64,000 nt of DNA, from assembly GCA_964187785.1 (NCBI GenBank), contig OZ076409.1, positions 72,976,001 through 73,040,000 on the forward strand, written 5' to 3'. This DNA comes from Amphiscolops sp. MND2022. Lineage: Eukaryota. The notes beneath the pieces were generated by a model that was not told the DNA's origin, ran no database searches, and saw only the letters and a program-made list of their open reading frames with translations. A program made the translations under genes and the position numbers. This document shows positions 1-40,142 of the stretch, piece by piece. How positions within the stretch are numbered: position 1 is the stretch's first letter; each line of letters opens with the position of its first letter.

Positions 1-140
1 CCAAACTACGGCCCTTACCTTCCCGAGCTACGCAGTATAAAGATTGCATATTGGTTCCGACATTTTGATAGAGTTATATCTTGGTAATCTGTCTGGATAC
101 GCAGAAAAACCAGCACGTGCTTTTTTTACCAAGTTGCTTA

Positions 141-225
141 CAACGACATTTATTTTATATCAACGCCCCCATCTTTATCAACGCCCCCCGTCCGTGGGCA
201 TGCCGAGGCATGCCCTTCGACGACG
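141..225. other. Conserved core (representative copy): CAACG direct repeats followed by the 20-bp palindrome GGGCATGCC-GA-GGCATGCCC (196-215)
   Basis: CAACG occurs at 141, 161 and 179. The palindrome has perfect 9-bp arms and is flanked by CGTC...GACG. It is the only long element essentially invariant in all 47 units. Confidence 0.95.
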
Positions 226-692
226 CGCACCAAAATTTTCACCGAGCGCGTTAGCCTGGGTGGCCGGAAATTTTTTTTTCAGCAAAATCTTTGCCATTGG
301 GGGAGGGGCCCCGGATGGCCAGTAGTTCGGCTTGGCTACCTGCAAATTCAGGTACAAAAAAACACGATCTCAAAATTGGCCCGTCAGAATTCGCTCATTT
401 TTTGCATGCGGCCCTAGAATCAATATATAAGAACAAAGTCCTGCTGACGTTTTGCCGAAAAAACATTTTTTGTTGACCAAAAATAACATTTTTCATGCCA
501 AAATTACCGTTTTTTCACATTTTTCAACTTTGAGAGCTCATATCTCGTTCCCAGGTGCCCGGAGCGGTTCGCACGTGAACTGCAATATTGCTCAACGTTG
601 TTAACGGAGTGCGTGGACAAATTTTGGTCCAAATTGGACTTAATCTCGGGGAGATATAAACGGATTTTTGGGGGTTTCCGGGGTAAATTTTT

Positions 693-840
693 TAACGGTC
701 CAGCTTATCTTTGCCATTTTTTCGAAAATGTACTCGCCTAAAGGCCTCCCCCTGGCCGAATTTCCTCCCAGCAAAACCATTTGGCCCTAAATACGGAGTT
801 TCAGCGTTCTAGCATTTCCGGGCGAAAAGTTGTGGGACTT
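693..840 (+). repeat. Central conserved ~150-bp block of standard units (representative copy)
   Basis: TAACGGTCCAGCTTATCTTTGCCATTTTTTCGAAAATG...CCTAAAGGCCTCCCC...CCATTTGGCCCTAAATACGGAGTTTCAGCGTT...AAAAGTTGTGGGACTT is near-identical in most standard units. Only its 3' part is present in the units at ~20.8, 22.0, 58.1 and 62.0 kb, and it is absent from unit 9189-10489. Confidence 0.9.
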
Positions 841-1229
841 AGAAAAAATTCAAAATTTTTCAAAAATTTTTTTTTCGTTTTCCGGCCCCCCAATGAAGGG
901 GAACGACCCCCCAACTAGGATTTTTGGTGAATCCATGTGAAAGGGTCTTGTTTAGTGAAGAAAAATGCCGTTTAGAGCGACTTTTTATCTTAACTTGACG
1001 TTGACTTATGCCGTTTCGAATTTGATATTAGTATGTGTTGAGCATGTGAAAAGTTGAATATTTCAGTTGTTCTTTCGTGTTAGCCATTGAGATACAAGCT
1101 GTAGTGATCAAAATGTGATTTTTCGCAGTTTCGTGGTGCTTTTGGTGTATTTTGATTCTTTTGATAAAAAAGTTGTTCTTTATATATTGACAATTTTGGT
1201 GTATTGATTCAAATGAACATGAAACAGTT

Positions 1230-1272
1230 GAGTACATTTCATCTCCCTCTTGAGGGAGATGAGAATGTACTC
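1230..1272. other. Type-1 bulged hairpin (representative copy), ~240-265 bp upstream of the core in every standard unit
   Basis: GAGTACATT(C/T)-CATCTCCC-loop-GGGAGATG-A-GAATGTACTC: about 10-bp outer stem, one extra base in the 3' arm, 8-10-bp inner stem and a variable loop. It is usually preceded by AAACAGTT. Confidence 0.92.
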
Positions 1273-4200
1273 GCTAAAGTCCTAGTACTATGGCCCATTT
1301 TTGTTTTTTTCAGACGCAGATACTGCCAACGGATACTTTTTGCTGGTGCAACTTTCCTGTGCACAATGTCTTTAGAAGCTAGAAAACTCTATGTCTCTAG
1401 CTTACTTCTCCTACAAATTCGTCACCGACGTCAACGCCACACACTCTCACTAACGCCCACCGTCTGTGGGCATGCCGAGGCATGCCCTTCGACGACGTAT
1501 GCCAAATAGCGCCACAGGGCGCCCAATTTTGTCTAGGTGCCGGGATTTCTATTCGTTCGAGTAAGTGGCGCGTGTGGGTAGGGCCCCTGGCGCGCTCTTG
1601 TGTTTCGGGTTTTCCTACTCCTAAACCGCGTTCAGATTTTCGGGATCTCGTAAACTAGCCATACGATTTGGCTGAAATTTGGCACACGTACCCCCCTCGG
1701 CACGGTGAAGATGATTCCCTACTGACGTTTTGCCCGCTAAACATTTTTTGTTGACCAAAATAACGGTTTTTGGTGGAAAATTTTCAACTTTTTTTAAATT
1801 TCATCTTATATCTCGCCCCAGGTTTACGCTAGCGCTTCAAAACCTTGCTGACGAAACTTCGCAAACTGTCTCAGGAATGCGGTGTGAAATTTTCAGCTCA
1901 ATCGAACTTAAACTCGGGGAGATATAGCGTTTTTCCGGAGCGGGGGGGTTTCATTTTTCTAACGGTTCAGCTTATCTTTGCCATTTTTTCGAAAATGTAC
2001 TCGCCTAAAGGCCTCCCCTGGCCGGTTTTACTCCCAAAAAAACCATTTGGCCCAAAATACGGAGTTTCAGCGTTCTAGCATTCCGGGGCGAAAAGTTGTG
2101 GGACTTAGTAAATTTCAAAAATTTTCAAAAATTTTTTTTTCGTTATTTGGGCCCCCAAAGTGGGGGAAAAGACCCCCCAACCAGTAATTTGAGTGAATTC
2201 ATGTGGAAAGGCCATGTTTAGCGGAGAAAAATGCCGTTTAGATCGTCTTTTTATTTTAACCTGTTGTTGACTTATGTTGTTTTGAAGGTGATGTTTGGAT
2301 GTGTGAAGCATGTGAAAATGTAATTTTTTGTGTCTTTATCTCTTCTAAAAGCCATTGAGATGCAATCTGTTTTGCTCAAAACGTAATTCAATGCAATTTG
2401 GCAGTCAATGAACACAATTTGGTGTCTTTTGACATATTTTTCTGTTGATATAATAAAAAATTTTGTGTCTTTATTCATATTTTTTAAATGAAATAACTTG
2501 AAACAGTTGAGTACATTCCATCCCCCCTTCCGGGGGAGATGGAAATGTACTCGCTAAAAGCCGCGAACAAGAGCCCATACCTTCCTGCGCTACGCAGTAT
2601 AAAGATTGCATGTTGGTTCCGACTTTTTGGTAGTGTTATATCTTGGTAATTTGACTGAATATGGAGAAAAATCAGCACGTGCTCTTTTATAGCAAGTTGC
2701 TGACAACGACAATTTTTTTTTATCAACGCCCCCATATTTATCAACGCCCCCCGTCCGTGGGCATGCCGAGGCATGCCCTTCGACGACGTGCACCAAGATA
2801 TACCCCAAGCGCGTTAGCCTAGGTGCCGGGATTTCTATTCGTTCGAGTATGTGGCGCGTGTGGGTAGGGCCCCTGGCGCGCTCTTTTATTTCGGGTACAC
2901 CTACTCCAAATTCACGATGTGATTTCGACGATCTCGTAAACTAGCCACACGATTTGGCTGAAATTTGGCACACGTACCCCCCTCGGCACGGTGAAGATGA
3001 TTTTCTACTGACGTTTTTCCCGCTAAACATTTTTTGTTGACCAAAATAACGGTTTTTGGGGTAAAATTTTCAACTTTTTTTAAATTTCATCTTATATCTC
3101 GCCACGGGTACACGCTAGCGCTTCCAAACCTTGCTGACGAAAGTTTGCAAACTGTCTCAGGAATGCTGTGTGAAATTTTCAGCTCAATCGGACTTAAACT
3201 CGAGGAGATATAGCGTTTTTCCGGAGCGGGGGGGTTTCATTTTTCTAACGGTCCAGCTTATCTTTGCCATTTTTTCGAAAATGCACTCGCCTAAAGGCCT
3301 CCCCTGGCCGGTTTTACTCCCAAAAAAACCATTTGGCCCTAAATACGGAGTTTCAGCGTTCTAGCATTCTCGGGCGAAAAGTTGTGGGACTTAGAAAATT
3401 TCAAAAATTTTCAAAAAATTTTTTTTTGTTATTTGGGCCCCCAAAGTGGGGGAAAGGACCCCCCAACCATTAATTTGAGTGAATGCATGTGCAAAGCCCT
3501 TGTATAGAGGAGAAAAATGCCGTTTAGAACGTCTTTTTATCTTTACTCAACGTTGACTTATGACGTTTTGAAGGTGACCGTTAGATATGGAAAATTGATG
3601 TTTTGAGTATTTATCTCATCTGAAAGCCATTGAGATACAACATGTTTTGCTCAAAACGGGTTTCATTGCAGTTTCGCTGTCTATTAACACCCTTTGGTGA
3701 CTTTTGACATATTTTTGCTTTTATATAAAACCAATTTTTTGTGCATTTTTTCTTTTTTTTTCATCTAATATCTTGAAACAGTTGAGTACATTCCATCTCC
3801 CTTCCCGGGGGAGATGAGAATGTACTCGCTAAAAGCCAAGAACTACGGCCAATACCTTCCCGAGCTATGCACTACAAATATTGCATATGCATGCAGACCT
3901 TTTGATACATTTTTATCTTTGTAGATTGACTGGAAAAACCGAAAACTCTGTCCTGATTATACAAAGTTTCCTCACAACGACACATGTTTACGTCAACGCC
4001 CCATAGTTCTTATCAACGCCCCCCGTCCGTGGGCATGCCGAGGCATGCCCTTCGACGACGTGCACCAAAATATATTCGAGCGCGGTAGCCGCTAGGTGGC
4101 CGTGTCTTTTCGACGTGCTTTTGCATTGAGGAGTGGGTAGGGCCCCGCGACGACCTAGAAGAATTGGATGCTCACCGAAACGTGCAGAATTCTACGAGAT

Positions 4201-7200
4201 CTCATAGTTTGAGCCATACGATTTTTCTGAAATTTGGCATGTGGCCTGGAATTGGTGAGTAGGTAAAACGTGTAGGAGGTAATTTTTCCCAAATTCCATT
4301 GTGAGAGGAGATATGGGCAAATAACGGTCCCAAAAATGGCAAAATTGCACTTTTTTCAACTTTGTCAGCCCATATCTCGTTCCCAGGTGCCCGGAGCGGG
4401 ACGCGTTAAGCTGATTATAAACTCTAGGGTGTTGAGGCGGTACGGTGAACTTGGGCCCGTTCCGATCGGACTTGTAGTCTTGGAGAAATAACGGTATTTT
4501 TGGGGAACCTTTTCTAACGGTCCAGCTTATCTTTGCCATTTTTTCGAAAATGTACTCGCCTAAAGGCCTCCCCCTGGCCGAATTTACTCCCAGCAAAACC
4601 ATTTGGCCCTAAATACGGAGTTTCAGCGTTCCAGCATTCCCGGGCGAAAAGTTGTGGGACTTGGAAAATTTTCAAAAATTTTCAAAAAATTTTTTTTTCG
4701 TTTTCCGGGCCCCCAATGAAGGGGAAACGACCCCCCAACCAGTATTTTGAGTGAATTCATGTGGAAAGCCCTTGTTTTGACGAGAAAAATACCGTTTAGA
4801 ACATCTTTTTATCTTGACTCAACGTTGACTTATGACGTTTTGAATGTGATGTAAGGATGTAGGAGGCATGTGATAAGTTGATGTTTTGAGTCTTTATCTC
4901 ATATGAAAGCGGTTGAGATGCAAGCTGTCCTGCTCAAAACGTCTTTCGTTGTAATTTTCCAGTGCACCAATACCCTTTGGTGTCATATAAACATACTTTT
5001 TGTCGATATATTAACAATTTTAATGTATTTATTCCAATTTTTATTATCTTATAACTCAAAACAGTTGAGTACATTTCATCTCCCTTTCGGGGGAGATGAG
5101 AATGTACTCGCTAAAGACCTAGCGCCATGACCAAAAGTTTGAAACCCACGTTTTTTATCTTCTTACAGACTTGTTTTTGTATTTTTTCGGAATTTTTTAA
5201 AAATTAATATACTTGAAATACATTACTTGACTTTACTACTACAACCCACCTCCAACGACAACGCCCCCTGCTTGCATCAACGCCCACCGTCCGTGGGCAT
5301 GCCGAGGCATGCCCTTCGACGACGTATGCCAAATGCCCAGTGCCACGCAGTCATTATCGCTAGGTGGCCGTGTCTTTTCGACGTGCTTTTGCATCGAGGA
5401 GTGGGTAGGGCCCCGCGACGACCTAGAAGAATTGGATGCTCACCGAAACGTGCAGAATTCTACGAGATCTCATAGTTTGAGCCATACGATTTTTCTGAAA
5501 TTTGGCATGTGGCCTGGAATTGGTGAGTAGGTAAAACGTGTAGGAGGTGATTTTTCCCAAATTCCACTGTGAGACGAGATATGGGCAAATAACGGTCCCA
5601 AAAATGGCAAAAATGCACTTTTTTCAACTTTGTCAGCCCATATCTCGTTCCCAGGTGCCCGGAGCGGGACGCGTTAAGCTGATTATAAACTCTAGGGTGT
5701 TGAGGCTGTACGGGGAAGTCAGGCCCGTTCCGATCGGACTTGTAGTCTTGGAGAAATAACGGTATTTTTGGGGAACCTTTTCTAACGGTCCAGCTTATCT
5801 TTGCCATTTTTTCGAAAATGTACTCGCCTAAAGGCCTCCCCCTGGCCGAATTTACTCCCAGCAAAACCATTTGGCCCTAAATACGGAGTTTCAGCGTTCC
5901 AGCATTCCCGGGCGAAAAGTTGTGGGACTTGGAAAATTTTCAAAAATTTTCAAAAAAATTTTTTTCGTTTTCCGGGCCCCCAATGAAGGGGAAACGACCC
6001 CCCAACCAGTATTTTGAGTGAATTCATGTGGAAAGCCCTTGTTTTGACGAGAAAAATACCGTTTAGAACATCTTTTTATCTTGACTCAACGTTGACTTAT
6101 GACGTTTTGAATGTGATGTAAGGATGTAGGAGGCATGTGATAAGTTGATGTTTTGAGTCTTTATCTCATATGAAAGCGGTTGAGATGCAAGCTGTCCTGC
6201 TCAAAACGTCTTTCGTTGTAATTTTCCAGTGCACCAATACCCTTTGGTGTCATATAAACATACTTTTTGTCGATATATTAACAATTTTAATGTATTTATT
6301 CCAATTTTTATTATCTTATAACTCAAAACAGTTGAGTACATTTCATCTCCCTTTCGGGGGAGATGAGAATGTACTCGCTAAAGACCTAGCGCCATGACCA
6401 AAAGTTTGAAACCCACGTTTTTTATCTTCTTACAGACTTGTTTTTGTATTTTTTCGGATTTTTTTAAAAATTAATATACTTGAAATACATTACTTGACTT
6501 TACTACTACAATCCACCTCCAACGACAACGCCCCCCTGCTTGCATCAACGCCCACCGTCCGTGGGCATGCCGAGGCATGCCCTTCGACGACGTATGCCAA
6601 ATGCCCAGTGCCACGCAGTCATTATCGCTAGGTGCCGGGATTTCTATTCGATAAAGTATGTGGCGCGTGTGGGTAGGGTCCCTGGCGCGCTCTTGGGTAT
6701 GGTGTTCACCAGCTAGGAAATAGGGGTCGATTTTTCGGGATCTCCTAAACTAGCCACACGATTTGGCTGAAATTTGGCACACGTACCCCCCTCGGCACGG
6801 TGAAGATGATTTCCTACTGACGTTTTTCCCGCAAAATTTTTTTTGTTGTCCAAAATAACGGTTTTTGGGGTAAATTTTTGAACTTTTTTTAAATTTCATC
6901 TTATATCTCGCCACGGGTTTACGCTAGCGCTTCCAAACCCTGCTAAAGAAAGCTTGCAAACTGTCTCAGGAATGCGGTGTGAAATTTTCAGCTCAATCGG
7001 ACTCAAACTCAGGGAGATATAGCGTTTTTCCGGAGCGGGGGGGTTTCATTTTTCTAACGGTCCAGCTTATCTTAGCCATTTTTTCGAAAATGCACTCGCC
7101 TAAAGGCCTCCCCTGGCCGGTTTTATTCCCAGCAAAACCATTTGGCCCTAAATACGGAGTTTCAGCGTTCCAGCATTCCCGGGCGAAAAGTTGTGGGACT

Positions 7201-10200
7201 TAGAAAATTTCAAAAATTTTCAAAAAATTTTTTTTCCGTTATTTGGGCCCCCAAAGTGGGGGAAAAGACCCCCCAACCAGTAAAGCAAGTGAATGCATGT
7301 GCAAAGCCCTTGTTTAGAGGAGAAAAATGCCGTTTAGAACGTCTTTTTATCTTGGCTCAACGTTGACTTATGACGTTTTGAACGTGATGTTTGGAGGTGT
7401 AAAGCACGTGAATAGTAAACGTTATGAGTATTTATCTGATCTGAAAGCCATTGAGATGCAATATGGTTTGCTCAAAACGTAATTCATATCAGTTTGGTAG
7501 TCAATCAACACCCTTTGTTGTCGTTTGACATACTTTTCTGTTGTTATAATAAAAAATTTTGTGTATTTATTCATTTTTTTCTCATCAAATAACTTGAAAC
7601 AGTTGAGTACATTCCATCCCCCCCTTCCGGGGGAGATGAGAATGTACTCGCAAAAAGCCCCGAACTACGGCCCTTACCTTCCCGAGCTACGCAGTATAAG
7701 GATTACATATTGGTTCCGACATTTTCATAGAGTTAAATCTTGGTAATCTGTCTGGATATGCAGAAAAATCAGCACGTGCCTTTTAATACCAAGTTGCTTA
7801 CAACGACAATTATTTTTTATCAACGCCCCCATACTTATCAACGCCCCCCGTCCGTGGGCATGCCGAGGCATGCCCTTCGACGACGTGCACCAAGATATGC
7901 GTTAACGCGTTAGCCTAGGTGCCGGTGTTTTTTTACACAATGGGGGAAGTTGCGCGGTTGGGGAGGGTCCCTGACGCGCTCCCGGGATTTCGGATTTTTT
8001 AACCTTTACGTACCCATCAAAAATTTTGGGATCTCGAAAACTAGCCGTACGATTTGACTGAAATTTGGCACACGTACCCCCCTCGGCACGGTGAAGATGA
8101 TTCCCTACTGACGTTTTGCTCGCTAAACATTTTTTGTTGACCAAAATAACGGTTTTTGGTGGAAAATTTTCAACTTTTTTTAAATTTCATCTTATATCTC
8201 GCCACGGGTACACGCTAGCGCTTCGAAACCTTGCTGACGAAACCTTGCAAACTGTCTCAGGAATGCTGTGTGAAATTTTCAGCTCAATCGGACTTAAACT
8301 CGAGGAGATATAGCGTTTTTCCGGAGCGGGGGGGTTTCATTTTTCTAACGGTCCAGCTTATCTTTGCCATTTTTTCGAAAATGCACTCGCCTAAAGGCCT
8401 CCCCTGGCCGGTTTTACTCCCAGCAAAACCATTTGGCCCTAAATACGGAGTTTCAGCGTTCCAGCATTCCCGGGCGAAAAGTTGTGGGACTTAGAAAATT
8501 TCAAAAATTTTCAAAAATTTTTTTTTTCGTTATTTGGGCCCCCAAAGTGGGGGAAAAGACCCCCCAACCAGTGAAGCAAGTGAATGCATGTGCAAAGCCC
8601 TTGTTTAGAGGAGAAAAATGCCGTTTAGAACGTCTTTTTATCTTGGCTCAACGTTGACTTTTGTCGTTTTGAAGGTGACCGTTAGATACGGAAAATTGAT
8701 GTTTTGAGTGTTTATCCCATCTGAAAGCCATTGAGATACAACATGTTTTGCTCAAAACGTGTTTCATTGCAGTTTCGCTGTCCATTAACACCCTTTGGTG
8801 TCTTTTGACGTAATTTTCTTTTCTATAATAACAATTTCTTTGTGTATTTATTCATTTTTTTCTCATCAAATAACTTGAAACAGTTGAGTACATTCCATCT
8901 CCCTTCCCGGGGGAGATGAGAATGTACTCGCTAAAGGTCAGGAACTACGGTCTATATCTTCCACAACACAAAAGAGATTGCAAATTGTTTCAGTTTGTCG
9001 CAGAAAACTTCTTTTTGCACTCTGTGACTCGACAAAGTGAACGTTTCTTACTTACTTTGAATCTCACCATACCACAACTCATCTCTAACGTCAACGCCCC
9101 CCACACACATCAACGCCCCCCGTCCGTGGGCATGCCGAGGCATGCCCTTCGACGACGTATAGCAAAATATATTCGAACGCGGTAGCGGCTAGGTGGCCAC
9201 GACCATGGTTTCTTGCGTATCTTGTCGAATCCTTTGTCGTTGCCGGCCGGGGAGGGACCCGTTTGCCGGCGTGTGTAGTGTGGGGCCCCCATACCCAAAA
9301 AGTGGTATTTTTTTCAGAGATCTCAAAATCGGCCCGTCAGAATTGCCTGAAATTTGGCATGAGGCTCCCAATTGGGGAAAAAATAAGAAGTGTAGGAGGC
9401 GACTTGTTCGGGTAAATATTGTATGTTGACTTTTGGCCAAAATAGTGTTCCCCCCCAACATGGGCAAAATCACATGAGGTGTAAAAATATGATCACAACT
9501 TTTGAACCTTTGGATTTAGGGGTACGGTCGTGGACCACATTAAGCAAGAGCTTTGGTGAGCGGGTAGGATAGATGGGTTTTGATCCCAGTACCTTCAACC
9601 ACTTTTGAGAAATTAACGTTTCAAACAAACATCCGGGAGGTATATGTAGCCCCTGAAGGCAGGTTTTTCGCCATTTTCAATGTGAAGGAGTGGGTTTAGC
9701 GCAACGTGTGTGGGGTGCTTTTTTGTTGCCCGTGTGCGGAGCGTTGTATAGAGGTGCTGGTTGTTGAAATTGGAAAAGTTGGTAAAAAGTTATACCTATA
9801 CCCCCCCTACTGTCTCTGCCATTCAATTTTTTTTTCAACTTCAGGCCTCCCAAAGGTGAGAAACTTCCACACAACTAGTATTGCAAGTGAATGCATGTGG
9901 AAAGTACTCGGATAGACGAGAAAAATGAGCTATAGAACGACTCTGTAGCTTAACTTGACGTTGACTTATGACATTTTGAGTGTGAGCTTGCTATGTGAGA
10001 AAAAAATTCAAAATTGAAAATCAAAGCTAAGTCTCATCCAAAACTCATCGAAATACGTTCAATCCATCCCAAAGCGGATTAATTCCAGATATACAGTGCA
10101 GCAACACTATTCAAGACCATTTGACACAATTTTACTAGTTTTGACATTGTATTATTCATCCGAGAGCACAAAACAGTTGGGTACATTCCATCTCCCTTTC

Positions 10201-13200
10201 GGGGGAGATGAGAATGTACCCGCTAAATGACACGCACCATGGCCTAATTTTTACCTTTATGCGACGTTTTCTAGGCTTTCGCGCAAGCCCACTAATATTT
10301 ACACTGGTTTCTTTCTCTTTCACTCCAAACTTTCCGTCCGTACTAACCACCTTACACACCACCAGCTCAACGACACATCTGTAACGTCAACGCCACATAC
10401 TTGCATCAACGCCCACCGTCCGTGGGCATGCCGAGGCATGCCCTTCGACGACGTATGCCCGTTGTCACAACAGGGCGCCCCTACATTCTCTAGGTGGCCG
10501 GAAATTTTTTTTTCATCAAAATCTTTGCCATTGGGGGAGGGGCCCCGGATGGCCAGTAGTTCGGCTTGGCTACCTGCAAAATCAGGTACAAAAAAACACG
10601 ATCTCAAAATTGGCCCGTCAGAATTCGCTCATTTTTTGCATGCGGCCCTAGAATCAATATATAAGAACAAAGTCCTGCTGACGTTTTGCCCAAAAAACAT
10701 TTTTTGTTGACCAAAAATAACATTTTTCATGCCAAAATGACCGTTTTTTCACATTTTTCAACTTTGAGAGCTCATATCTTGTTCCCAGGTGCCCGGAGCG
10801 GTTCGCACGTGAACTGCAATATTGCTCAGCGTTGTTAGCGGAGTGCGTGGACAAATTTTGGTCCAAATCGGACTTAAACTCGGGGAGATATAAACGGATT
10901 TTTGGGGGTTTCCGGGGTAAATTTTTTAACGGTCCAGCTTATCTTTGCCATTTTTTCGAAAATGTACTCGCCTAAAGGCCTCCCCCTGGCCGAATTTCCT
11001 CCCAGCAAAACCATTTGGCCCTAAAAACGGAGTTTCAGCGTTCTAGCATTTCCGGGCCAAAAATTTGTGGGACTTAGAAAAAATTCAAAATTTTTCAAAA
11101 TTTTTTTTTTCGTTTTCCGGCCCCCCAATGAAGGGGAACGACCCCCCAACTAGGATTTTTGGTGAATCCATGCAAAAAGGTCTTGTTTAGTGGAGAAAAA
11201 TGCCGTTTAGAGCGACTTTTTATCTTAACTTGACGTTGACTTATGTCGTTTTGAATTTGATATTAGTATGTGTTGAGCATGTGAAAAGTTGAATATTTCA
11301 GTTGTTCTTTCGTGTTAGCCATTGAGATACAAGCTGTAGTGATCAAATTGTGATTTTTTGCAGTTTCGTGGTGCTTTTGGTGTATTTTGATTCATTTGAT
11401 AAAAAAGTTGTTCTTTATATATTGACAATTTTGGTGTATTGATTCAAATGAACATGAAACAGTTGAGTACATTTCATCTCCCTCTTGGGGGAGATGAGAA
11501 TGTACTCGCTAAAGTCCTAGTACTATGGCCCATTTTTGTTTTTATCAGACGCAGATACTGCCAACGGATACATTTTGTTGGTGCAACTTTCCTGTGCACA
11601 ATGTCTTTAGAAGCTAGAAAACTCTATGTCTCTAGCTTACTTCTCCTACAAATTCGTCACCGACGTCAACGCCACACACTCTCACTAACGCCCACCGTCT
11701 GTGGGCATGCCGAGGCATGCCCTTCGACGACGTATGCCAAATAGCGCCACAGGGCGCCCAATTTTGTCTAGGTGCCGGTGTTTTTTTACACAATGGGGGA
11801 AGTTGCGCGGTTGGGGAGTGTCCCTGACGCGCTCCCGGGATTTCGGATTTTTTAACCTTTACGTACCCATCAAAAATTTTGGGATCTCGAAAACTAGCCG
11901 TACGATTTGGCTGAAATTTGGCACACGTACCCCCCTCGGCACGGTGAAGATGATTCCCTACTGACGTTTTGCTCGCTAAACATTTTTTGTTGACCAAAAT
12001 AACGGTTTTTGGGGTAAAATTTTCAACTTTTTTTAAATTTTATCTTATATCTCGCCACGGGTTTACGCTAGCGCTTCCAAACCTTGCTGACGAAACCTTG
12101 CAAACTGTCTCAGGAATGCGGTGTGAAATTTTCAGCTCAATCGGACTCAAACTCGGGGAGATATAGCGTTTTTCCGGAGCGGGGGGGTTTCATTTTTCTA
12201 ACGGTCCAGCTTATCTTTGCCATTTTTTCGAAAATGCACTCGCCTAAAGGCCTCCCCTGGCCGGTTTTATTCCCAGCAAAACCATTTGGCCCTAAATACG
12301 GAGTTTCAGCGTTCCAGCATTTCCGGGCGAAAAGTTGTGGGACTTAGAAAATTTCAAAAATTTTCAAAAAATTTTTTTTCCGTTATTTGGGCCCCCAAAG
12401 TGGGGGAAAAGACCCCCCAACCAGTAAAGCAAGTGAATGCATGTGCAAAGCCCTTGTTTGGACGAGAAAAATTCCGTTTAGAACGTCTTTTTATCTTGGC
12501 TCAACGTTGACTTATGACGTTTTGAAGGTGATGTTTGGAGGTGTAAAGCAAGTGAATAGTAAACGTTATGAGTATTTATCTGATCTGAAAGCCATTGAGA
12601 TGCAATATGGTTTGCTCAAAACGTAATTCATTGCAGTTTGGCAATCAATCAACACCCTTTGTTGTCGTTTGACATACTTTTTTGTTGTTATAATAAAAAA
12701 TTTTGTGTATTTATTCATTTTTTTCTCATCAAATAACTTGGAACAGTTGAGTACATTCCATCCCCCCCTTCCGGGGGAGATGAGAATGTACTCGCAAAAA
12801 GCACCGAACTACGGCCCTTACCTTCCCGAGCTACGCAGTATAAGGATTACATATTGGTTCCGACATTTTCATAGAGTTATATCTTGGTAATCTGTCTGGA
12901 TATGCCGAAAAATCAGCACGTGCCTTTTAATACCAAGTTGCTCACAACGACAATTATTTTATATCAACGCCCCCATATTTATCAACGCCCCCCGTCCGTG
13001 GGCATGCCGAGGCATGCCCTTCGACGACCCGCACCAAAATATGCGTTAGCGCGGTAGCTGCTAGGTGGCCGTGTCTTTTCGACGTGCTTTTGCATTGAGG
13101 AGTGGGTAGGGCCCCGCGACGACCTAGAAGAATTGGATGCTCACCGAAACGTGCAGAATTCTACGAGATCTCATAGTTTGAGCCATACGATTTTTCTGAA

Positions 13201-16200
13201 ATTTGGCATGTGGCCTGGAATTGGTGAGTAGGTAAAACGTGTAGAAGGTAATTTTTCCCAAATTCCACTGTGAGAGGAGATATGGGCAAATAACGGACCC
13301 AAAAATGGGGAAAATGCACTTTTTTCAAGTTTGTCAGCCAATATCTCATTTCCAGGTGCCCGTAGCGTTCCGCACGTGGACATCAAAATTGCTCAGCGCT
13401 GTTGGAGGAGTGCGTGGACAAATTTTGGTTCAAATCGGACTGAAACTTGGCGAGAAATTAACGGTTTTTTGGGCGTTTCCGGGGTAAATTTTTTAACGGT
13501 CCAGCTTATCTTTGCCATTTTTTCGAAAATGTACATGCCTAAAGGCCTCCCCCTGGCCGAATTTACTCCCAGCAAACCCATTTGGCCCTAAATACGGAGT
13601 TTCAGCGTTCCAGCATTCCGGGGCGGAAAGTTGTGGGACTTTGAAAAATTTCAAAATTTTTCAAAATTTTTTTTTCCGTTTTCCGGGCCCCCCAATGAAG
13701 GGGAACGACACCCCAACCAGTATTTTGAGTAAATTCATGAGGAAAGCCCATGTTTAGAGGAGAAAAATGCCGTTTAGAACATCTTTTTATCCTAAATTGA
13801 TGTTGACTTATGATCTTTTGAGTAGCGTATAACACGTGATCACAGTAGTGAAAATCCTAATTTTCAATAATTTTCAAACAATAACGCATGAAAAGAACCT
13901 GGAAAAGGTTCCGATGGGTCAGTTGGGATGTCTGAAGCATGTGTACATTCCCGTAGTGTATAGCGGAGGTATTTGGGACTTATTAGAAATTGTGATAAAT
14001 TTTATACAAGTCTTTGTTTCTCTTAGAATCTTATGCCGTTGAGTACATTCCATCTCCCTTTCAGGGGAGATGTGAATGTACGTTTGCCAAATGCCTTGTA
14101 ACGTTCACAATTTTGATGGATTCAAATCGTTCAACAAGTGTGATTTGCGTTTGCCGAACCACTGCGACAAAATATCCTAAATCTATAGCGAGATTGTATG
14201 GTTTTTGTCTTTAGTGTTTCGTCTTGTGTAGCCGACTTCCACAACCAAATATCAACGCCCGCCGTCCGTAGGCATGCCGAGGCATGCCTTTCGACGACGT
14301 ATGCCAAATACCCAATGCCACGCTGTCATTATCGCTAGGTGCCGGGATTTCTATTCGATAAAGTATGTGGCGCGTGTGGGTAGGGTCCCTGGCGCGCTCT
14401 TGGGTATGGTGTTCACCAGCTAGGAAATAGGGGTCGATTTTTCGGGATCTCCTAAACTAGCCACACGATTTGGCTGAAATTTGGCACACGTACCCCCCTC
14501 GGCACGGTGAAGATGATTTCCTACTGACGTTTTTCCCGCAAAATTTTTTTTGTTGTCCAAAATAACGGTTTTTGGGGTAAAATTTTGAATTTTTTTTAAA
14601 TTTCATCTTATATCTCGCCACGGGTTTACGCTAGCGCTTCAAAACCCTGCTAAAGAAAGCTTGCAAACTGTCTCAGGAATGCGGTGTGAAATTTTCAGCT
14701 CAATCGGACTTAAACTCAGGGAGATATAGCGTTTTTCCGGAGCGGGGGGGTTTCATTTTTATAACGGTCCAGCTTATCTTAGCCATTTTTTCGAAAATGT
14801 ACTCGCCTAAAGACCTCCCCTGGCCGGTTTTATTCCCAGCAAAACCATTTGGCCCTAAATACGGAGTTTCAGCGTTCCAGCATTCCCGGGCGAAAAGTTG
14901 TGGGACTTAGAAAAATTCAAAAATTTTCAAAAATTTTTTTTTCGGTTTTCCGCCCTCCCCCCCCCGAGGGGAAAAGACCCCCCAACCAGTAATTTGAGTG
15001 AATTCATGTGGAAAGGCCATGTTTAGAGGAGAAAAATCCCGTTTAAATCGTCTTTTTATCTTTATTCAACGTTGACTTATGACGTTTTGAAGGTGATGTT
15101 TGGAAGGTGTGAAGCACGTGAAAAGTAAACGTTATGAGTATTTATCTGATCTGAAAGCCATTGAGATGCAACCTGTTTTGCTCAAAACGTAATTCATATC
15201 AGTTTGGTAGTCAATCAACACCCTTTGTTGTCGTTTGACATACTTTTTTGTTGATATAAGAAAAAATTTCGTGTATTTATTCATTTTTTTCTCATCAAAT
15301 AACTTGAAACAGTTGAGTACATTCCATCCCCCCTTCACGGGGGAGATGAGAATGTACTCGCAAAAAGCCCCGAACTACGGCCCTTACCTTCCTGAGCTAC
15401 GCAGTATAAAGATTGCATATTGGTTCCGACATTTTGATAGAGTTATATCTTGGTAATCTGTCTGGGTATGCAGAAAAACCAGCACGTGCTTTTTTATACC
15501 AAGTTGCTCACAACGACATTTATTTTATATCAACGCCCCCATATTTATCAACGCCCCCCGTCCGTGGGCATGCCGAGGCATGCCCTTCGACGACGTATAC
15601 CAAGATATGTTCGAGCGCGTTAGCCTAGGTGCCGGGATTTCTATTCGATAAAGTATGTGGCGCGTGTGGGTAGGGTCCCTGGCGCGCTCTTGGGTATGGT
15701 GTTCACCAGCTAGGAAATAGGGGTCGATTTTTCGGGATCTCCTAAACTAGCCACACGAATTGGCTGAAATTTGGCACACGTACCCCCATCGGCACAGTGA
15801 AGATGATTTCCTACTGACGTTTTTCCCGCAAAATTTTTTTTGTTGTCCAAAATAACGGTTTTTGGGGTAAAATTTTGAATTTTTTTTTAAATTTCATCTT
15901 ATATCTCGCCACGGGTTTACGCTAGCGCTTCAAAACCCTGCTAAAGAAAGCTTGCAAACTGTCTCAGGAATGCGGTGTGAAATTTTCAGCTCAATCGAAC
16001 TCAAACTCAGGGAGATATAGCGTTTTTCCGGAGCGGGGGGGTTTCATTTTTCTAACGGTCCAGCTTATCTTTGCCATTTTTTCAAAAATGCACTCGCCTA
16101 AAGGCCTCCCCTGGCCGGTTTTATTCCCAGCAAAATCATTTGGCCCTAAATACGGAGTTTCAGCGTTCCAGCATTCCCGGGCGAAAAGTTGTGGGACTTA

Positions 16201-19200
16201 GAAAAATTTCAAAAATTTTCGAAAATTTTTTTTCCGTTTTCCGGCCCCTCCCCCGAGGGGAAAAGACCCCCCAACCAGTAATATGAGTGAATTTATGTGG
16301 AAAGGCCATGTTTAGACGAAAAAATTGCCGTTTAGAACGTCTTTCTATCTCAACCTGACATTGACTTATGAAGCTTTAAAGGTGATGTTTGGACGTGTGA
16401 AGCATGTAAAAAAAGGAATTTTTTTGATTTTATTTCATCAGAAAGTCATTGAATCACACGCTGTGAAGCCCAGAGCGTGATTTCTAATAGTTTGGTATCG
16501 TTTAAACGCATTTTGGTGTCTTTTTACTCTGTTTAAAAAACTTTTCTCCTGAAAATTAATAAATTTTGATTACTTTTCTTACTTTCCATTAATTTTTTTT
16601 TCTTATATTTTTACTTGAAACAGTTGAGTACATTCCATCTCCCTTCCCGGGGGAGATGAGAATGTACTCGCAAAAAGCCGCGAACTACGGCCCATACCTT
16701 CCCGAGATACGCAGTATAAAGATAACATAATGGTCCAGACATTTTAATGGAGTTGTATCTTGGTAATATGTCTGGATTTGCAGAAAAATCAGCACGTGCC
16801 ATTTTATACCAAGTTGCTCGCAACGACAATTAATTTAAATCAACGCCCCCCACAAAAATCAACGCCCCCCGTCCGTGGGCATGCCGAGGCATGCCCTTCG
16901 ACGACGTGCACCAAAATATGCCCCGAGCGCGTTAGCAGCTAGGTGCCGGGATAACTATTCGTTCGAGTATGTGGCGCGTGTGGGTAGGGCCCCTGGCGCG
17001 CTCTTTTATTTCGGGTACACCTACTCCAAATTCACGATGTGATTTCGACGATCTCGTAAACTAGCCACACGATTTGGCTGAAATTTGGCACACGTACCCC
17101 CCTCGGCACGGTGAAGATGATTCCCTACTGACGTTTTGCCCGCTAAACATTTTTTGTTGACCAAAATAACGGTTTTTGGGGGAAAATTTTGAACTTTTTT
17201 TAAATTTCGTCTCATATCTCGCCACGGGTTTACGCTAGCGCTTCAAAACCTTGCTAACGAAAGTTTGCAAACTGTCTCAGGAATGCGGTGTGAAAATTTC
17301 AGCCCAATCGGACTTAAACTCGAGGAGATATAGCGTTTTTCCGGAGCGGGGGGGTTTCATTTTTCTAACGGTCCAGCTTATCTTTGCCATTTTTTCGAAA
17401 ATGTACTCGCCTAAAGGCCTCCCCTGGCCGGTTTTAATCCCAGCAAAACCATTTGGCCCTAAATACGGAGTTTCAGCGTTCCAGCATTCCCGGGCGAAAA
17501 GTTGTGGGACTTAGAAAATTTCAAAAATTTTCAAAAAATTTTTTTCCGTTATTTGGGCCCCCAAAGTGGGGCAAAAGACCCCCCAACCAGTAAAGCAAGT
17601 GAATGCATGTGGAAAGCCCTTGTTTAGACGAGAAAAATGGCGTTTAGAACGTTTTTTTATCGTAACTTGACATTGACTTTTGTCGTTTTGAAGGTGACCG
17701 TTAGATACGGAAAATTGATGTTTTGAGTGTTTATCCCATCTGAAAGCCATTGAGATACAACATGTTTTGCTCAAAACGTGTTTCATTGCAGTTTCGCTGT
17801 CCATTAACACCCTTTGGTGTCTTTTGACGTAATTTTCTTTTCTATAATAACAATTTCTTTGTGTATTTATTCATTTTTTTCTCATCAAATAACTTGAAAC
17901 AGTTGAGTACATTCCATCTCCCTTCCCGGGGGAGATGAGAATGTACTCGCTAAAGGTCAGGAACTACGGTCTATATCTTCCACAACACAAAAGAGATTGC
18001 AAATTGTTTCAGTTTGTCGCAGAAAACTTCTTTTTGCACTCTGTGACTCGACAAAGTGAACGTTTCTTACTTACTTTGAATCTCACCATACCACAACTCA
18101 TCTCTAACGTCAACGCCCCCCACACACATCAACGCCCCCCGTCCGTGGGCATGCCGAGGCATGCCCTTCGACGACGTATAGCAAAATATATTCGAACGCG
18201 GTAGCCGCTAGGTGCCGGGATTTTCTATTCGACAAGTTTGCGCGCCTTGGGGAGGGTCCCTTTGCGCGCTTTAAGATCCAGGTGTTTCCAACTCCTAAAC
18301 GGGCATGTGATTTCGACGATCTCCTAAACTAGCCATACGATTTGGCTGAAATTTGGCACACGTACCCCCCTCGGCACGGTGAAGATGATTCCCTACTGAC
18401 GTTTTTCCCGCTAAACATTTTTTGTTGACCAAAATAACGGTTTTTGGGGTAAAATTTTGAACTTTTTTTAAATTTCATCCTATATCTCGCCACGGGTACA
18501 CGCTAGCGCTTCCAAACCTTGCTGACGAAAGTTTGCAAACTGTCTCAGGAATGCGGTGTGAAATTTTCAGCTCAATCGGACTCAAACTCGGGGAGATATA
18601 GCGTTTTTCCGGAGCGGGGGGGTTTCATTTTTCTAACGGTCCAGCTTATCTTTGCCATTTTTTCAAAAATGCACTCGCCTAAAGGCCTCCCCTGGCCGGT
18701 TTTATTCCCAACAAAACCATTTGGCCCTAAATACGGAGTTTCAGCGTTCAAGCATTCCTGGGCGAAAAGTTGTGGGACTTAGAAAAGTTCAAAAATTTTC
18801 AAATAATTTTTTTCCGTTATTTGGGCCCCCAAAGTGGGGGAAAAGACCCCCCAACCAGTAAGGCAAGTGAATGCATGTGCAAAGCCCTTGTTTAGACGAG
18901 AAAAATGCCGTTTAGAACGTCTTTTTATCTTAACTTGACATTGACTTTTGTCGTTTTGAAGGTGACCGTTAGATACGGAAAATTGATGTTTTGAGTATTT
19001 ATCCCATCTGAAAGCCATTGAGATACAACATGTTTTGTTCAAAACGTGTTTCATTGCAGTTTCGCTGTCCATTATCACCCTTTGGTGTCTTTTCACGTAA
19101 TTTTCGTTTCTATAATAACAATTTTTTTGTGTATTTATTCATTTTTTTCTCATCAAATAACTTGAAACAGTTGAGTACATTCCATCTCCCTTCCCGGGGG

Positions 19201-22200
19201 AGATGAGAATGTACTCGCTAAAGGTCAGGAACTACGGTCTATATCTTCCACAACACAAAAGGGATTGCAAATGGTTTCAGTTTGTCGCAGAAAACTTCTT
19301 TTTGCCCTCTGTGACTCGACAAAATGAACGTTTCTTACTTACTTTGAAACTCAGCATACCACAACTCATCTCTAACGTCAGCGCCCCCCTACTTGCATCA
19401 ACGCCCACCGTCCGTGGGCATGCCGAGGCATGCCCTTCGACGACGTATACCAAGATATACCTGGAGCGCGGTAGCAGCTAGGTGCCGGGATTTCTATTCG
19501 ATAAAGTATGTGGCGCGCCTTGGGTAGGGTCCCTTGCGCGCTCTTGGGTATGGTGTTCACCAGCTAGGAAATAGGGGTCGATTTTTCGGGATCTCCTAAA
19601 CTAGCCACACGATTTGGCTGAAATTTGGCACACGTACTCCCCTCGGCACGGTGGAGATGATTTCCTACTGACGTTTTTCCCGCAAAATTTTTTTTGTTGT
19701 CCAAAATAACGGTTTTTGGGGTAAAATTTTGAATTTTTTTTAAATTTTATCTTATATCTCGCCACGGGTTTACGCTAGCGCTTCAAAACCCTGCTAAAGA
19801 AAGCTTGCAAACTGTCTCAGGAATGCGGTGTGAAATTTTCAGCTCAATCGGACTCAAACTCAGGGAGATATAGCGTTTTTCCGGAGCGGGGGCGTTTCAT
19901 TTTTCTAACGGTCCAGCTTATCTTAGCCATTTTTTCGAAAATGTACTCGCCTAAAGACCTCCCCTGGCCGGTTTTATTCCCAGCAAAACCATTTGGCCCT
20001 GAATACGGAGTTTCAGCGTTCCAGCATTCCCGGGCGAAAAGTTGTGGGACTTAGAAAATTTCAAAAATTTTCAAAAAAATTTTTTTCCGTTTTCCGCCCT
20101 CCCCCCCTAGGGGAAAAGACCCCCCAACCAGTAATTTGAGTGAATTCATGTGGAAAGGCCATGTTTAGAGGAGAAAAATCCCGTTTAAATTGTCTTTTTA
20201 TCTTTATTCAACGTTGACTTATGACGTTTTGAAGGTGATGTTTGGAGGTGTGAAGCACGTGAAAAGTAAACGTTATGAGTATTTATCTGATCTGAAAGCC
20301 ATTGAGATGCAACCTGTTTTGCTCAAAACGTAATTCATATCAGTTTGGTAGTCAATCAACACCCTTTGTTGTCATTTGACATCTTTTTTTGTTGATATAA
20401 GAAAAAATTTCGTGTATTTATTCATTTTTTTCTCATCAAATAACTTGAAACAGTTGAGTACATTCCATCCCCCCTTCACGGGGGAGATGAGAATGTACTC
20501 GCAAAAAGCCCCGAACTACGGCCCTTACCTTCCTGAGCTACGCAGTATAAAGATTGCATATTGGTTCCGACATTTTGATAGAGTTATATCTTGGTAATCT
20601 GTCTGGGTATGCAGAAAAACCAGCACGTGCTTTTTTATACCAAGTTGCTCACAACGACATTTATTTTATATCAACGCCCCCATATTTATCAACGCCCCCC
20701 GTCCGTGGGCATGCCGAGGCATGCCCTTCGACGACGTATACCAAGATATGTTCGAGCGCGTTAGCCTAGGTGCCGGTGTTTTCTTCACTTTTGAGGAAGT
20801 TGCGCGTGTGGGTAGGGCCCCTGGCGCGCTCCGTTGTCCCTGTGTTTACATCTTAGAAAATTTGAGTAAAAAAATGGGATCTCGAAAACTGGCCACACGA
20901 TTTGGCTGAAATTTTGCATACGGCTCCCTATGACAGTTGTAAGAACTAATCCCTAGTGGCGTTTTGCCCGGAAAATTTTTTTTGTTGACTTATTCACATT
21001 TTTAGGGTCAAAAAATGGCGTTTTTTTGAAAAATTTTTTTTTCAGAGACAATTACTCGAAACTGGTGCACCCAGCGCAGTAACGCCTAGCTGATTTATTG
21101 TTGGGCATTTCATGAGGAGTCCGTATACAAATTTTCGTCCAAATCGGATAAAAAATGATTGAGAAATAACTGAAAATTTGAGGAATTTTTTGGGAAATTT
21201 TCGAAAACCCAGTCTATCTCTGCCGTTTTTTGCCCAGATTTTTTTTGAGACACTCTCCTAAAGACCTCCCCTGGCCGGTTTTCCTCCCAGCAAAACCATT
21301 TGGCCCTAAATACGAAGTTTCAGCGTTCTAGCATTCCCGGGCGAAAAGTTGTGGGACTTAGAAGAATTTTTTGGAAACGCAAAATTTGTAAAGTCAACTT
21401 CAGGCCTCCCAAAGTCAAGGAACTTCCACACAACTAGTATTGCAAGTGAATGCATGTGGAAAGTACTCGGATAGACGAGAAAAATGAGCTATAGAAAGAC
21501 TCTGTAGCTCAACCTGACGTTGACTTATGATGTTTTGAATGTGTGCTTGCTAAGGGGTCCGAAACTGAAAATTTTTAAAGAAAATTAATATCGTCAAAAA
21601 TTCATCGGAATGCCTGCAATATACAGTAGAGCGTGTTCAATTGTAGCTGATTAATGCATCAACGCCGTTCAAGGTCTTTTAACTCAGTTTCAAAATTTTG
21701 TACACTGTATTATTCATCCGAGAGCACAAAACAGTTGAGTACATTCCATCTCCCCTCCGTGGGAGATGAGAATGTACTCGCTAAAGTCCAGGTGCTACAG
21801 CCCATATTTGTTTTTTTGCGGCGCTATTTATGCTAGTGCGCACACGTATTAACTTTTTACCTGATTTTACTTTTGTCAGTACTTTTACTTTGACTTGACA
21901 TATACTGAACATTATGTCCTTCTATCATACACATGACTAACGTCAACGCCCCATCCTTGCTTCAACGCCCACCGTCCGTGGGCATGCCGAGGCATGCCCT
22001 TCGACGACGTATGCCAAAGATATTCCCGAGCGCGTTAGCCTAGGTGGCCGGAAATTTTTTTTTCAGCAAAATCTTTGCCATTGGGGGAGGGGCCCCGGAT
22101 GGCCAGTAGTACGGTATAGCTTCCTACCAAATCCAGATGGAAAAAACGTGATTTTGGAAACTAGCCGTCAGAATTTGCTCAAATTTTGCATACGGCTTCC

Positions 22201-25200
22201 TATGACAATCCTAAGAACTAATCCCTACTGGCATTTTGCCCAAAAAACGCAAAAAGTTGGTCAAAATCTTAGTTTTTTGGTCAAAAAATGGCGTTTTTTC
22301 GAAAAAAAATTTTTTCAGAGACAATTACTCGTAACTGGTTCACCCAGCGCAAAAACGCCTAGCTGATTTATTGTTGGGCACTTCATGAGGAGTGCGTATA
22401 CAAATTTTCGTCCAGATCGGAAAAAAAATGACTAAGTATTAGCCGGAATTCGGACGCATTTTTTCGCAAATTTTTGAAAACCTAGTCTATCTCTGCCGTT
22501 TTTTGCCCAGATTTTTTTCCAGGTCCTCTCCTAAAGGCCTCCCCTGGCCGGTTTACTTCCCAGAAAAACCATTTGGCCCTAAATACGGAGTTTCAGCGTT
22601 CTAGCATTCCCGGGCGAAAAGATGTGGGACTTAAAAAAAATTCAAAATTTTTCAAAAAAATTTTTTTTCGTTTTCCGTCCCCCCAATGAAGGGGAACGAC
22701 CCCCCAACGAGGATTTTTGGTGAATTCACGTGGAAAGGCCTTGTTTTGTGGAGAAAATTGCCGTTTAGAGCGACTTTTTATCTTAACTTGACGTTGACCT
22801 CTGTCGTTTTGAATTTGATATTAGTATGTGTTGAGCATGTGAAAAGTTGATGATTTCAGTTGTTCTCTCGTGTTCAAGCCATTGAGATACAAGCGGTAGT
22901 GATCAAAATGTGATTTATCGCAATTTGGTGGTGCTTTTGGTGTATTTTGATTCTTTTAAATAAAAAGTTGTTCTTTATATATTTGGTGTATTGATACAAA
23001 TGAACAAGAAACAGTTGAGTACATTTCATCTCCCCCCTTGTGGGGGAGATGAGGATGTACCCGCTAAATGACACGCACAATGGCCCAATTTTATTTTTAT
23101 GCGACGTTCTCTAGGCTTTTGCGCAAGCCCACTAAAATTTAGACTGGTTTCCTTTTCTTTTACTCCAAAATTTTCCGTACTAACCACCTTACGCACCACC
23201 AGCTCAACGTAACATCTGTAACGTCAACGCCACACACTCTCACTAACGCCCACCGTCCGTGGGCATGCCGAGGCATGCCCTTCGACGACGTATGCCAAAT
23301 AGCGCCACAGGGCGCAAACTTGTCCGCTAGGTGGCCGTGTCTTTTCGACGTGCTTTTGCATTGAGGAGTGGGTAGGGCCCCGCGACGACCTAGAAGAATT
23401 GGATGCTCACCGAAACGTGCAGAATTCTACGAGATCTCATAGTTTGAGCCATACGATTTTTCTGAAATTTGGCATGTGGCCTGGAATTGGTGAGTAGGTA
23501 AAACGTGTAGAAGGTAATTTTTCCCAAATTCCACTGTGAGAGGAGATATGGGCAAATAACGGACCCAAAAATGGCAAAAATGCACATTTTTCAACTTTGT
23601 CAGCCAATATCTCTTTTCCAGGTGCCCGTAGCGTTCCGCACGTGGACATCAATATTGCTCAGCGCTGTTGGAGGAGTGCGTGGACAAATTTTGGTTTAAA
23701 TCGGACTAAAACTTGACGAGAAATTAACGGTTTTTTGGGCGTTTCCGGGGTAAATTTTTTAACGGTCCAGCTTATCTTTGCCATTTTTTCGAAAATGTAC
23801 ATGCCTAAAGGCCTCCCCCTGGCCGAATTTACTCCCAGCAAACCCATTTGGCCCTAAATACGGAGTTTCAGCGTTCCAGCATTCCGGGGCGGAAAGTTGT
23901 GGGACTTGGAAAAATTTCAAAATTTTTTCAAAAATTTTTTTTCCCGTTTTCCGGGCCCCCAATGAAGGGGAACGACCCCCCAACCAGTATTTTGAGTGAA
24001 TTCATGTGGAAAGCCCATGTTTGGAGGAGAAAAATGCCGTTTAGCACATCTTTTTATCTTAACTTGACATTGACTTATGACGTTTTGAATGTGATGTTAG
24101 GATATATGAAGCATGTTAAAAGTTGAAGTTTTGAGTCTTTATCTCATCGGAAAACCATTGAGATACAAGCAGTTTTGCTAAAAACGATTTTCATTGTAGG
24201 TTAGCAGAGTATTAGTACACTTTGATGTCATTTGAGTATATTTTTCTTCTATATAATAACTGTTTTTATGTATTTATTCCAATTTATCTCATCTTTTAAC
24301 ATCAAGCAGTTGAGTACATTTCATCTCCCTTTCGGGGGAGATGAGAATGTACTCGCTAAAAACCTAATGCTATGGCGCCAATGTTTGGATGGGAAGTTTT
24401 CTATGCTTTGAAAAAAGTTATTTTTAATTACTTGATTTTTTAAAACAATAATTAACATGAAGTACATTACTTGCTCCTACTACTACCACCATACATCTCT
24501 AACGTCAACGCCCCCTGCTTGCATCAACGCCCCATCGTCCGTGGGCATGCCGAGGCATGCCCTTCGACGACGTATGCCAAATGCCCAGTGCCACGCAGTC
24601 TTTCCCCGCTAGGTGCCGGGATTTTCTATTCGACAAGTTTGCGCGCCTTGGGGAGGGTCCCTTTGCGCGCTTTAAGATCCAGGTGTTTCCAACTCCTAAA
24701 CGGGCATGTGATTTCGACGATCTCCTAAACTAGCCATACGATTTGGCTGAAATTTGGCACACGTACCCCCCTCGGCACGGTGAAGATGATTCCCTACAGA
24801 CGTTTTTCGCGCTAAACATTTTTTGTTGACCAAAATAACGGTTTTTGGGGTAAAATTTTCAACTTTTTTTAAATTTCATCTTATATCTCGCCACGGGTAC
24901 ACGCTAGCGCTTCAAAACCTTGCTGACGAAAGCTTGCAAACTGTCTCAGGAATGCGGTGTGAAATTTTCAGCTCAATCAGACTTGAACTCAGGGAGATAT
25001 AGCGTTTTTCCGGAGCGGGGGGGTTTCATTTTTCTAACGGTCCAGCTTATCTTTGCCATTTTTTCGAAAATGTACTCGCCTAAAGGCCTCCCCTGGCCAA
25101 ATTTACTCCCAGCAAAACCATTTGGCCCTAAATACGGAGTTTCAGCGTTCCAGCATTCCCGGGCGAAAAGTTGTGGGACTTAGAAAAATTTCAAAATTTT

Positions 25201-35865: not shown

Positions 35866-35908
35866 GATAGCCCTCAAGTTGACCTTGTGTCAACTTGAAA
35901 GGGCTATC
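35866..35908. other. Type-2 hairpin
   Basis: GATAGCCCT-CAAGTTGAC-CTTGT-GTCAACTTG-AA-AGGGCTATC. This unit has no type-1 hairpin. Confidence 0.88.
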
Positions 35909-37960: not shown

Positions 37961-38004
37961 GATAGCCTTTCAAGTTGGCCTGGTGTCAACTTGGAATGGC
38001 TATC
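37961..38004. other. Type-2 hairpin
   Basis: GATAGCCTTTCAAGTTGGC-CTGGT-GTCAACTTGGAATGGCTATC. Confidence 0.85.
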
Positions 38005-40097: not shown

Positions 40098-40142
40098 GAG
40101 TACATTCTCATCTCTCCCCATCGGGTGAGATGAGAATGTTCT
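40098..40142. other. Divergent type-1 hairpin in long unit 38420-40610
   Basis: GAGTACATTCTCATCTCTCCCATCGGGTGAGATGAGAATGTTCT. Confidence 0.8.

Follow-up and report, generated by a model that had tools for sequence, protein, structure and literature searches.

The 64-kb window analyzed here (positions 72,976,001–73,040,000, forward strand, of contig OZ076409.1; assembly GCA_964187785.1, Amphiscolops sp. MND2022) is occupied by a head-to-tail array of non-coding units, each separated from the next by a palindromic core, a variable segment, and the 7-mer CT(A/G)GGTG. Coordinates below are window positions (1..64000), and all counts apply within the 64-kb window unless stated otherwise. The array runs past both window ends; 41 of its 46 complete units are of standard length (1268–1318 bp) and five are long (1390–2798 bp). 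A whole-window scan of the minus strand revealed no junction with a core before it. The features of the array and of one example junction are as follows.

1..64000, + strand: head-to-tail array in a single orientation, 46 complete units plus a partial unit at each window end
1468..1497, + strand: right-end core, a 20-nt palindrome (1468–1487) followed by a constant tail
1498..1532, + strand: variable subfamily-specific end segment of the upstream unit, 29–43 nt, tied to its own unit's left end and not to the next unit
1533..1539, + strand: unit junction CT(A/G)GGTG (example; n = 47), one copy per junction, with strand exchange probably within GGTG (1536–1539)
1533..2818, + strand: standard unit (example), 1286 bp from junction to junction, non-coding
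1567..1596, + strand: left-end stem-loop, 35–65 nt past the junction, with a conserved GGG(T/G)AGGG(T/C)CC core

The window's longest open reading frame (ORF) encodes 136 aa, and of the 84 and 38 ORFs listed, 11 were chosen for comparison with Pfam and gave no match at the curated cut-off. No Rfam family reached the gathering threshold over the 64 kb, with four sub-threshold matches in 1–8000, and a tRNA scan of the window found none. Pairwise identity among the aligned standard units (n = 41) ranged from 44 to 99.8%. The units appear to be one family of related, non-coding, hairpin-bearing DNA, comprising many subfamilies in near-random order.

The junction 7-mer as a unit boundary

The 47 copies of CT(A/G)GGTG on the + strand match the 47 palindromic cores one-to-one, at 39–53 bp from the palindrome end in every case (47/47), compared with a first-order Markov expectation of 3.8 such 7-mers (maximum of 9 in 30 runs). 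A preliminary description of this DNA, based on its letters alone, had placed the unit boundary at the 7-mer and not at the palindrome, and had noted that the 7-mer is kept in the five long units; it is indeed present at all five starts (33646, 36444, 38420, 40611, and 42001), and the strings and coordinates quoted there were all correct. A sharp drop in linkage at CTAGGTG had been set as the test beforehand. In a Mantel cut-point scan (39 two-unit rows with 15 informative columns per side), the median r over 780 cut points was 0.64, and the minimum of −0.03 fell at the 7-mer, which locates the boundary there. The long invariant core (38 columns) did not break linkage, with an r of 0.54 across the core versus −0.03 at the 7-mer.

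Distance matrices in 60-column bins gave an r of 0.81 between the first and last bins of one unit, whose ends are 1.28 kb apart, and of 0.02 between the last bin and the first bin of the next unit (39 neighbour pairs). Site-level r2 across the junction was 0.029–0.039 versus a null value of 0.026 (399 biallelic sites). Linkage within units also dips to r values of 0.045–0.09, which counts against the junction as the sole break, yet long-range linkage spans those dips, and all bin pairs straddling the junction are near zero, unlike at the dips inside units.

The variable segment was also said to follow the upstream module and not the downstream unit, and both parts held at module level (47 junctions): adjusted mutual information (AMI) was 0.44 (p = 0.001) with the upstream module and 0.07 (p = 0.10) with the next left end, while that between the upstream module and the next left end was 0.10 (p = 0.046). 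Among junction pairs with the same upstream but different downstream sequence (n = 43), 26 split at the first base past the 7-mer and the others within 2–10 more; among pairs with the same downstream sequence (n = 51), 44 split 0–3 bases before the 7-mer and two inside it.

The proposal that the 7-mer is the crossover, nick, or insertion site is the simplest reading of the linkage, but the site can be narrowed to GGTG. A homologous junction on a metagenome contig (L059, 1–1172; about 70% identical in blocks) reads CGAGGTG, and at 40405 an internal junction that has decayed reads AAAGGTG, reducing the invariant part to (R)GGTG; in an alignment of 14 junctions including these two, GGTG alone was invariant. 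The two CTGG variants each follow a unique upstream unit, and the same downstream types show CTAG elsewhere, a pattern (2/2 cases) that places the exchange after the purine, although point mutations could also give both cases. The + strand contains 134 copies of RGGTG, of which 47 lie at junctions, one at the decayed junction, and 86, unused, inside units away from cores, so the target is an element end in context and not the motif alone. Each unit spans one (R)GGTG to the next and moves whole, in fixed orientation, with one shared site per junction.

Unit order bears on an alternative in which the array is an ordinary large satellite, perhaps HINE-derived, whose units are reshuffled through unequal crossover and gene conversion and in which the 7-mer is simply conserved. 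Identity reaches 95% or more in 25 unit pairs; the next unit was also shared by 0/24 testable near-identical pairs and the previous unit, at 95%, by 0/24 (maximum 94%), which indicates that single units move, whereas a satellite should show multi-unit block copying. The closest relative is adjacent for 5/41 units, at a median distance of 13.5 units versus 15 for random pairs. With 5/41 adjacent closest relatives, 0/24 shared dimers, and the linkage break at the 7-mer, the classical satellite traits of most-alike neighbours, higher-order blocks, and exchange in homologous stretches are missing. Patchy mosaics visible inside units do show homologous exchange, neighbours are slightly similar, and one adjacent pair is 99% identical, but exchange driven by homology would be expected to disrupt linkage where identical stretches are longest, not at 4–7 bp between variable flanks. 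A HINE that would start at the long internal hairpin and end at the next unit's AATGTACTC repeat was rejected as well: such a span would cross the unlinked junction, and the repeat is missing in units 20766, 22040, and 58132 and in L059. We regard the satellite explanation as very unlikely and largely refuted.

Unit 9189–10489 is of standard length but only ~53% identical to its closest relative, and a ~100-column patch of it is 94% identical to unit 20766, a likely conversion. Five successive units share one left-end type at 45290–51675, and unit 45290 is 99.8% identical to the distant unit 23327 and 98.4% identical to its neighbour.

End structures and a proposed mechanism

Two further features lie on the upstream side of the example junction.

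1230..1270, + strand: long internal hairpin, type A, 41–44 nt, 252–275 bp before the junction in standard units
1432..1467, + strand: AACGCC direct repeats, two copies ahead of the palindrome, recognized from sequence and alignment

The outer pair of the palindrome is G-C in 45/47 cores, with A-T on both sides in 2/47 and in L059, and the AACGCC pair is iteron-like, forming possible protein-binding sites. The left-end motif GGG(T/G)AGGG(T/C)CC lies 41–46 nt into the unit in 44/48 cases under strict matching and 46/48 under loose matching. The arms of the left stem-loop are unrelated between subfamilies yet complementary (own arms −7.6 versus swapped arms −5.9 kcal/mol; 13 types, p = 0.002); the structure is weak in the 10-unit GCCGTG subfamily and absent from unit 38420. 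The long internal hairpin was found by pattern in 43/46 units and as variants in the other three; in four long units it is replaced by a type B hairpin unrelated to type A, and compensatory change in it was seen in unit 9189 and L059. Hairpins at both ends are kept by compensatory changes, which suits an enzyme acting on single strands, as described in the available part of PMC10288648.

A 16–17 bp direct repeat, AATGTACTCGC(C)TAAAG (727–743 and 1264–1279), flanks a conserved middle in most standard units. The bracketed middle is a partly separate linkage block, and the first repeat copy is absent in some subfamilies and L059. A motif ~125 nt into most units may resemble non-autonomous invertebrate Helitron-type elements.

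We give roughly even odds (a probability of about 0.5) to the interpretation that the units are non-autonomous elements mobilised by an HUH (rolling-circle, single-strand) transposase and inserting at one another's ends. The transposase would be supplied in trans and would most likely be an HUH enzyme of the Helitron/Replitron kind, binding the left-end stem-loop as well as the right-end palindrome and the direct repeats that accompany it. It would nick within GGTG and release a circular monomer in which the site is restored at the joint, and the circle would integrate at the same site of an existing junction. Each insertion would yield two new usable junctions, so that the array would grow as a random-order cassette stack, and homologous patch exchange between units would then mix their middles. 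We infer the enzyme identity and the exact nick from sequence features. In the portions of the literature available, HUH transposons in general have terminal hairpins and orientation-specific insertion without duplication (PMC10288648, PMC5876387), circles and end bypass were shown for Helraiser (PMC4778049), and doubled termini after self-insertion were proposed for Fusarium Helitrons (PMC5148889).

Several observations weigh against this mechanism. The 64-kb window shows neither a transposase nor a circle, and it shows no solo copies, empty sites, or ends of the array. The HUH elements known to us have only short target preferences and no strict self-targeting. Unit order retains some structure: similarity between neighbours is slightly raised at lag 1 (0.723 versus 0.688, p = 0.023) but not at lags 2–4, left-end type is repeated in 15/46 adjacencies versus 8.0 expected (p = 0.004), and the five long units sit side by side (P = 3e-5 under random order, calculated post hoc). 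This residual order could arise if dimers were inserted now and then, if units were copied locally, or if a core block were older; the extra neighbour similarity is not focused at unit ends and thus gives no sign of homology-guided targeting. Linkage within units is U-shaped, falling from 0.235 to 0.126 at 500–600 columns and rising to 0.17–0.21, which is suggestive of a circular map, but two-breakpoint gene conversion gives the same U shape, so circles are not proven. There is a hint, though a weak one, that the two ends of a unit pair with each other: the first bases paired with the unit's own variable arm at p = 0.007 over 14 types, the own arm being the best partner in 3/14, and folding gave p values of 0.08 and 0.30.

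Helitron membership, evaluated with the HLE1 and HLE2 criteria in the available parts of PMC3627910 and PMC11417382, adds to these difficulties. The preliminary description had likened the right end to Helitron 3' ends, and the likeness is partly supported: CTRG (with a presumed cut position) fits the CTRR of HLE1 at 47/47 window junctions, but L059 has CGAG and lacks the CT. There is no 5' TC, as units begin with (G)GTG followed by C or G. The constant palindrome is too distant, at 39–53 nt from the 3' end versus 10–12 in HLE1, and just 9/47 junctions have a hairpin of at least −3 kcal/mol stability within 30 nt of them. A search for asymmetric terminal inverted repeats (left 25 nt against right 123 nt, 46 units) gave a longest exact inverted match of 7, the same as in the control (7). 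As for HLE2, junctions read CTRGGTG and not the insertion site between two T residues, the array ends lying outside the window; hairpins near both ends are present, with the left stem starting ~35 nt in and not at the terminus. The units may be like a rolling-circle non-autonomous element in their working, but canonical membership fails for both HLE1 and HLE2.

Comparison with known systems

The following comparisons draw on the parts of the cited papers that were available. HLE1 elements (PMC4778049, PMC5876387, PMC11417382), which insert between A and T and have a RepHel partner, resemble the array in their subterminal palindrome, lack of target duplication, and perhaps CTRR-like 3' side, and are also known for head-to-tail circle joints, tandem arrays, and end bypass; their rolling-circle tandems, however, repeat one element, whereas the array alternates unlike subfamilies unit by unit. 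HLE2, Helentron, and HINE elements (PMC3627910, PMC5148889, PMC7492417, PMC11417382) share with it hairpins at two ends, compensatory changes, non-autonomous units with internal repeats, self-insertion, and doubled termini. Replitrons (HUH Rep transposons; PMC10288648) are like the units in their short terminal direct repeats, fixed target orientation, and ~1 kb non-autonomous copies (Replitron-N1, ~910 bp). Units are likewise bounded by a short direct repeat, (CT)RGGTG, shared with the neighbour, and have a palindrome in the right terminal ~50 bp (39–53 nt before the junction, assuming this to be the right end); Replitron-1 inserts after RG, and the window junction can be read as CT-RG followed by GTG across the insertion point. 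Replitrons are dispersed in algae, plants, and protists and carry the repeat TAAAGG, whereas the array is stacked and carries (R)GGTG; the fuzzy ends and variable duplications described for them are absent here, as is a Rep gene from the non-coding window. Cryptons, tyrosine-recombinase elements with a proposed circle (PMC3212892), share 4–6 bp terminal direct repeats without terminal inverted repeats (TIRs), a combination present in the units. The array has the DNA features of both Replitrons and fungal/oomycete Cryptons, two classes that are defined by their enzyme. Cut-and-paste transposons with a shared CTAG duplication were ruled out by the lack of TIRs and the single orientation.

The same whole-unit cassettes could arise through a tyrosine recombinase of Crypton or integron kind, with excised circles re-integrating by crossover in a 4–7 bp (R)GGTG core. 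Bacterial integron arrays have one folded site per cassette, a common orientation, a short conserved crossover, and unit-by-unit shuffling, and in integrons the attC site is a folded single strand in which conservation is confined to the crossover. One shared 4–7 bp direct repeat per junction, fixed orientation, and the lack of duplication agree with such an enzyme, as do the 4–6 bp terminal direct repeats and proposed circle of fungal/oomycete Cryptons (PMC3212892). However, inverted 11–13 bp binding arms are missing around the site, where flanks vary freely; the compensatory hairpins lie 35–65 nt off the crossover; the available part of PMC3212892 gives animal Cryptons as lacking terminal repeats and describes no mixed cassette arrays; and the window contains no recombinase. 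In contrast to bacterial integron cassettes, these units are non-coding, share homology, and apparently come from a eukaryote, with no integrase, attI, or R''/R' inverted pair shown. We consider this the main rival, though an unlikely one.

A host-maintained functional array (telomeric, centromeric, or of programmed-rearrangement cassettes) in which a domesticated site-specific enzyme did the shuffling, or else an insertion system resembling site-specific retroelements, seems quite improbable. Length is held at 1268–1318 bp in 41 units (256–33645 and 44017–63230) despite identity down to 44%, a possible size constraint that is unexplained and that would suit host maintenance; the long units violate this length rule. 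According to the accessible parts of the sources, Helitrons cap chromosome ends in Paramecium, where mosaic satellites occur in random order (PMC13085455), and form subtelomeric blocks in Hydractinia (10.1101/2024.11.21.624632). The window, however, lacks telomeric repeat runs, poly(A) tails, a 5' truncation series, and Rfam or tRNA matches; telomere targeting was ruled out by the lack of repeat runs. Tandem Helitron arrays are already known as well.

None of four window motifs appeared in any relevant paper of the literature searched, nor was a stack of unlike subfamilies joined singly at a fixed non-host site found there, in a search that included few subscription papers and lay outside Repbase. 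A bolder interpretation is that the array represents an undescribed eukaryotic self-targeting class building integron-like cassette arrays, in which a structure-guided enzyme would insert circular monomers with base-pair precision at a composite site (palindrome, 29–43 nt arm, GGTG, and downstream stem-loop) found only at element junctions. We hold this to be decidedly doubtful; if true, the array would be a self-renewing safe haven for the family, possibly with a chromosomal role. To our knowledge, strict target specificity is rare among eukaryotic DNA transposons, the known examples being directed at repeats of the host (telomeres, small-RNA genes). An element targeting its own junction would follow a different survival strategy and offer a route to large tandem arrays beyond concerted evolution, and arrays of this kind would be wrongly annotated as satellite. 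Integration at a structured site that is precise and fixed in orientation would also be of interest for genome-engineering tools. The defined ends (core, GGTG, and left stem-loop) suffice to fish for an autonomous partner in the full assembly, which would tell an HUH enzyme from a tyrosine recombinase.

Related sequences and the long-unit block

A metagenome scan with the 18-mer palindrome gave 77 matches in 76 loci, among which only L059 was homologous with flanking anatomy; its order of long hairpin, core, variable arm, and left stem-loop matches the window. The full core had no match in the metagenomes. Pattern scans of viral contigs gave match counts of 5, 2, 0, 18, and 0, with no homology extending past the motif, bacterial and archaeal genomes gave 0 and 0, and phages none. 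The two empty prokaryotic scans, together with the array's size and character, point to a eukaryotic source; no autonomous flanking partner occurred among the metagenome, viral, bacterial, and archaeal pattern matches.

These data also bear on an assembly or library artefact in which circles or fragments were joined in silico or by ligation. The array has one assembly as its source, and a public sequencing run (X1) contains 11% of window words, no RNA run being listed for them, and yields 11 short contigs at 80% likeness, none crossing a junction, so the junction is left uncovered. Yet graph mis-joins fall in long shared stretches and not in 7 bp, and the independent contig L059 has the same junction anatomy. 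Restriction-ligation was rejected: ligation at CTAG would leave units in both orientations, and the window's 173 CTAG sites, 45 of which are junctions, would have been cut. We therefore consider an artefact extremely improbable. The array is real, precisely bounded, conserved in a second source (L059), and beyond ordinary satellite evolution.

The five long units form a block with a decayed junction inside it.

33646..44016, + strand: five long, divergent units lying next to one another, all with the standard ends and three of them with internal ~500-bp repeats
40346..40610, + strand: decayed internal junction and mini-unit, comprising a core with four changes at 40346, AAAGGTG at 40405 (AGGTG kept), and a ~205-bp mini-unit

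The mini-unit has an intact right end and a faint left-end motif near 40455, and together with the decayed junction it marks unit 38420 as a fused pair. The succession of a decayed inner end and an intact outer end at 40346–40610 resembles the Helitron end bypass and multiple termini described in the available parts of PMC4778049 and PMC5148889. Nowhere in the array is complementarity between ends longer than the 7 bp that link the outer end of the mini-unit to the start of unit 38420. The ~500-bp internal module is common to three long units (33646–38419 and 42001–44016) and is repeated ~2.4 times in unit 33646, with copies 87% identical. The G+C content of the window is 43%, and its observed/expected CpG ratio is 1.02, that is, without depletion, which is unusual for an old methylated repeat array.
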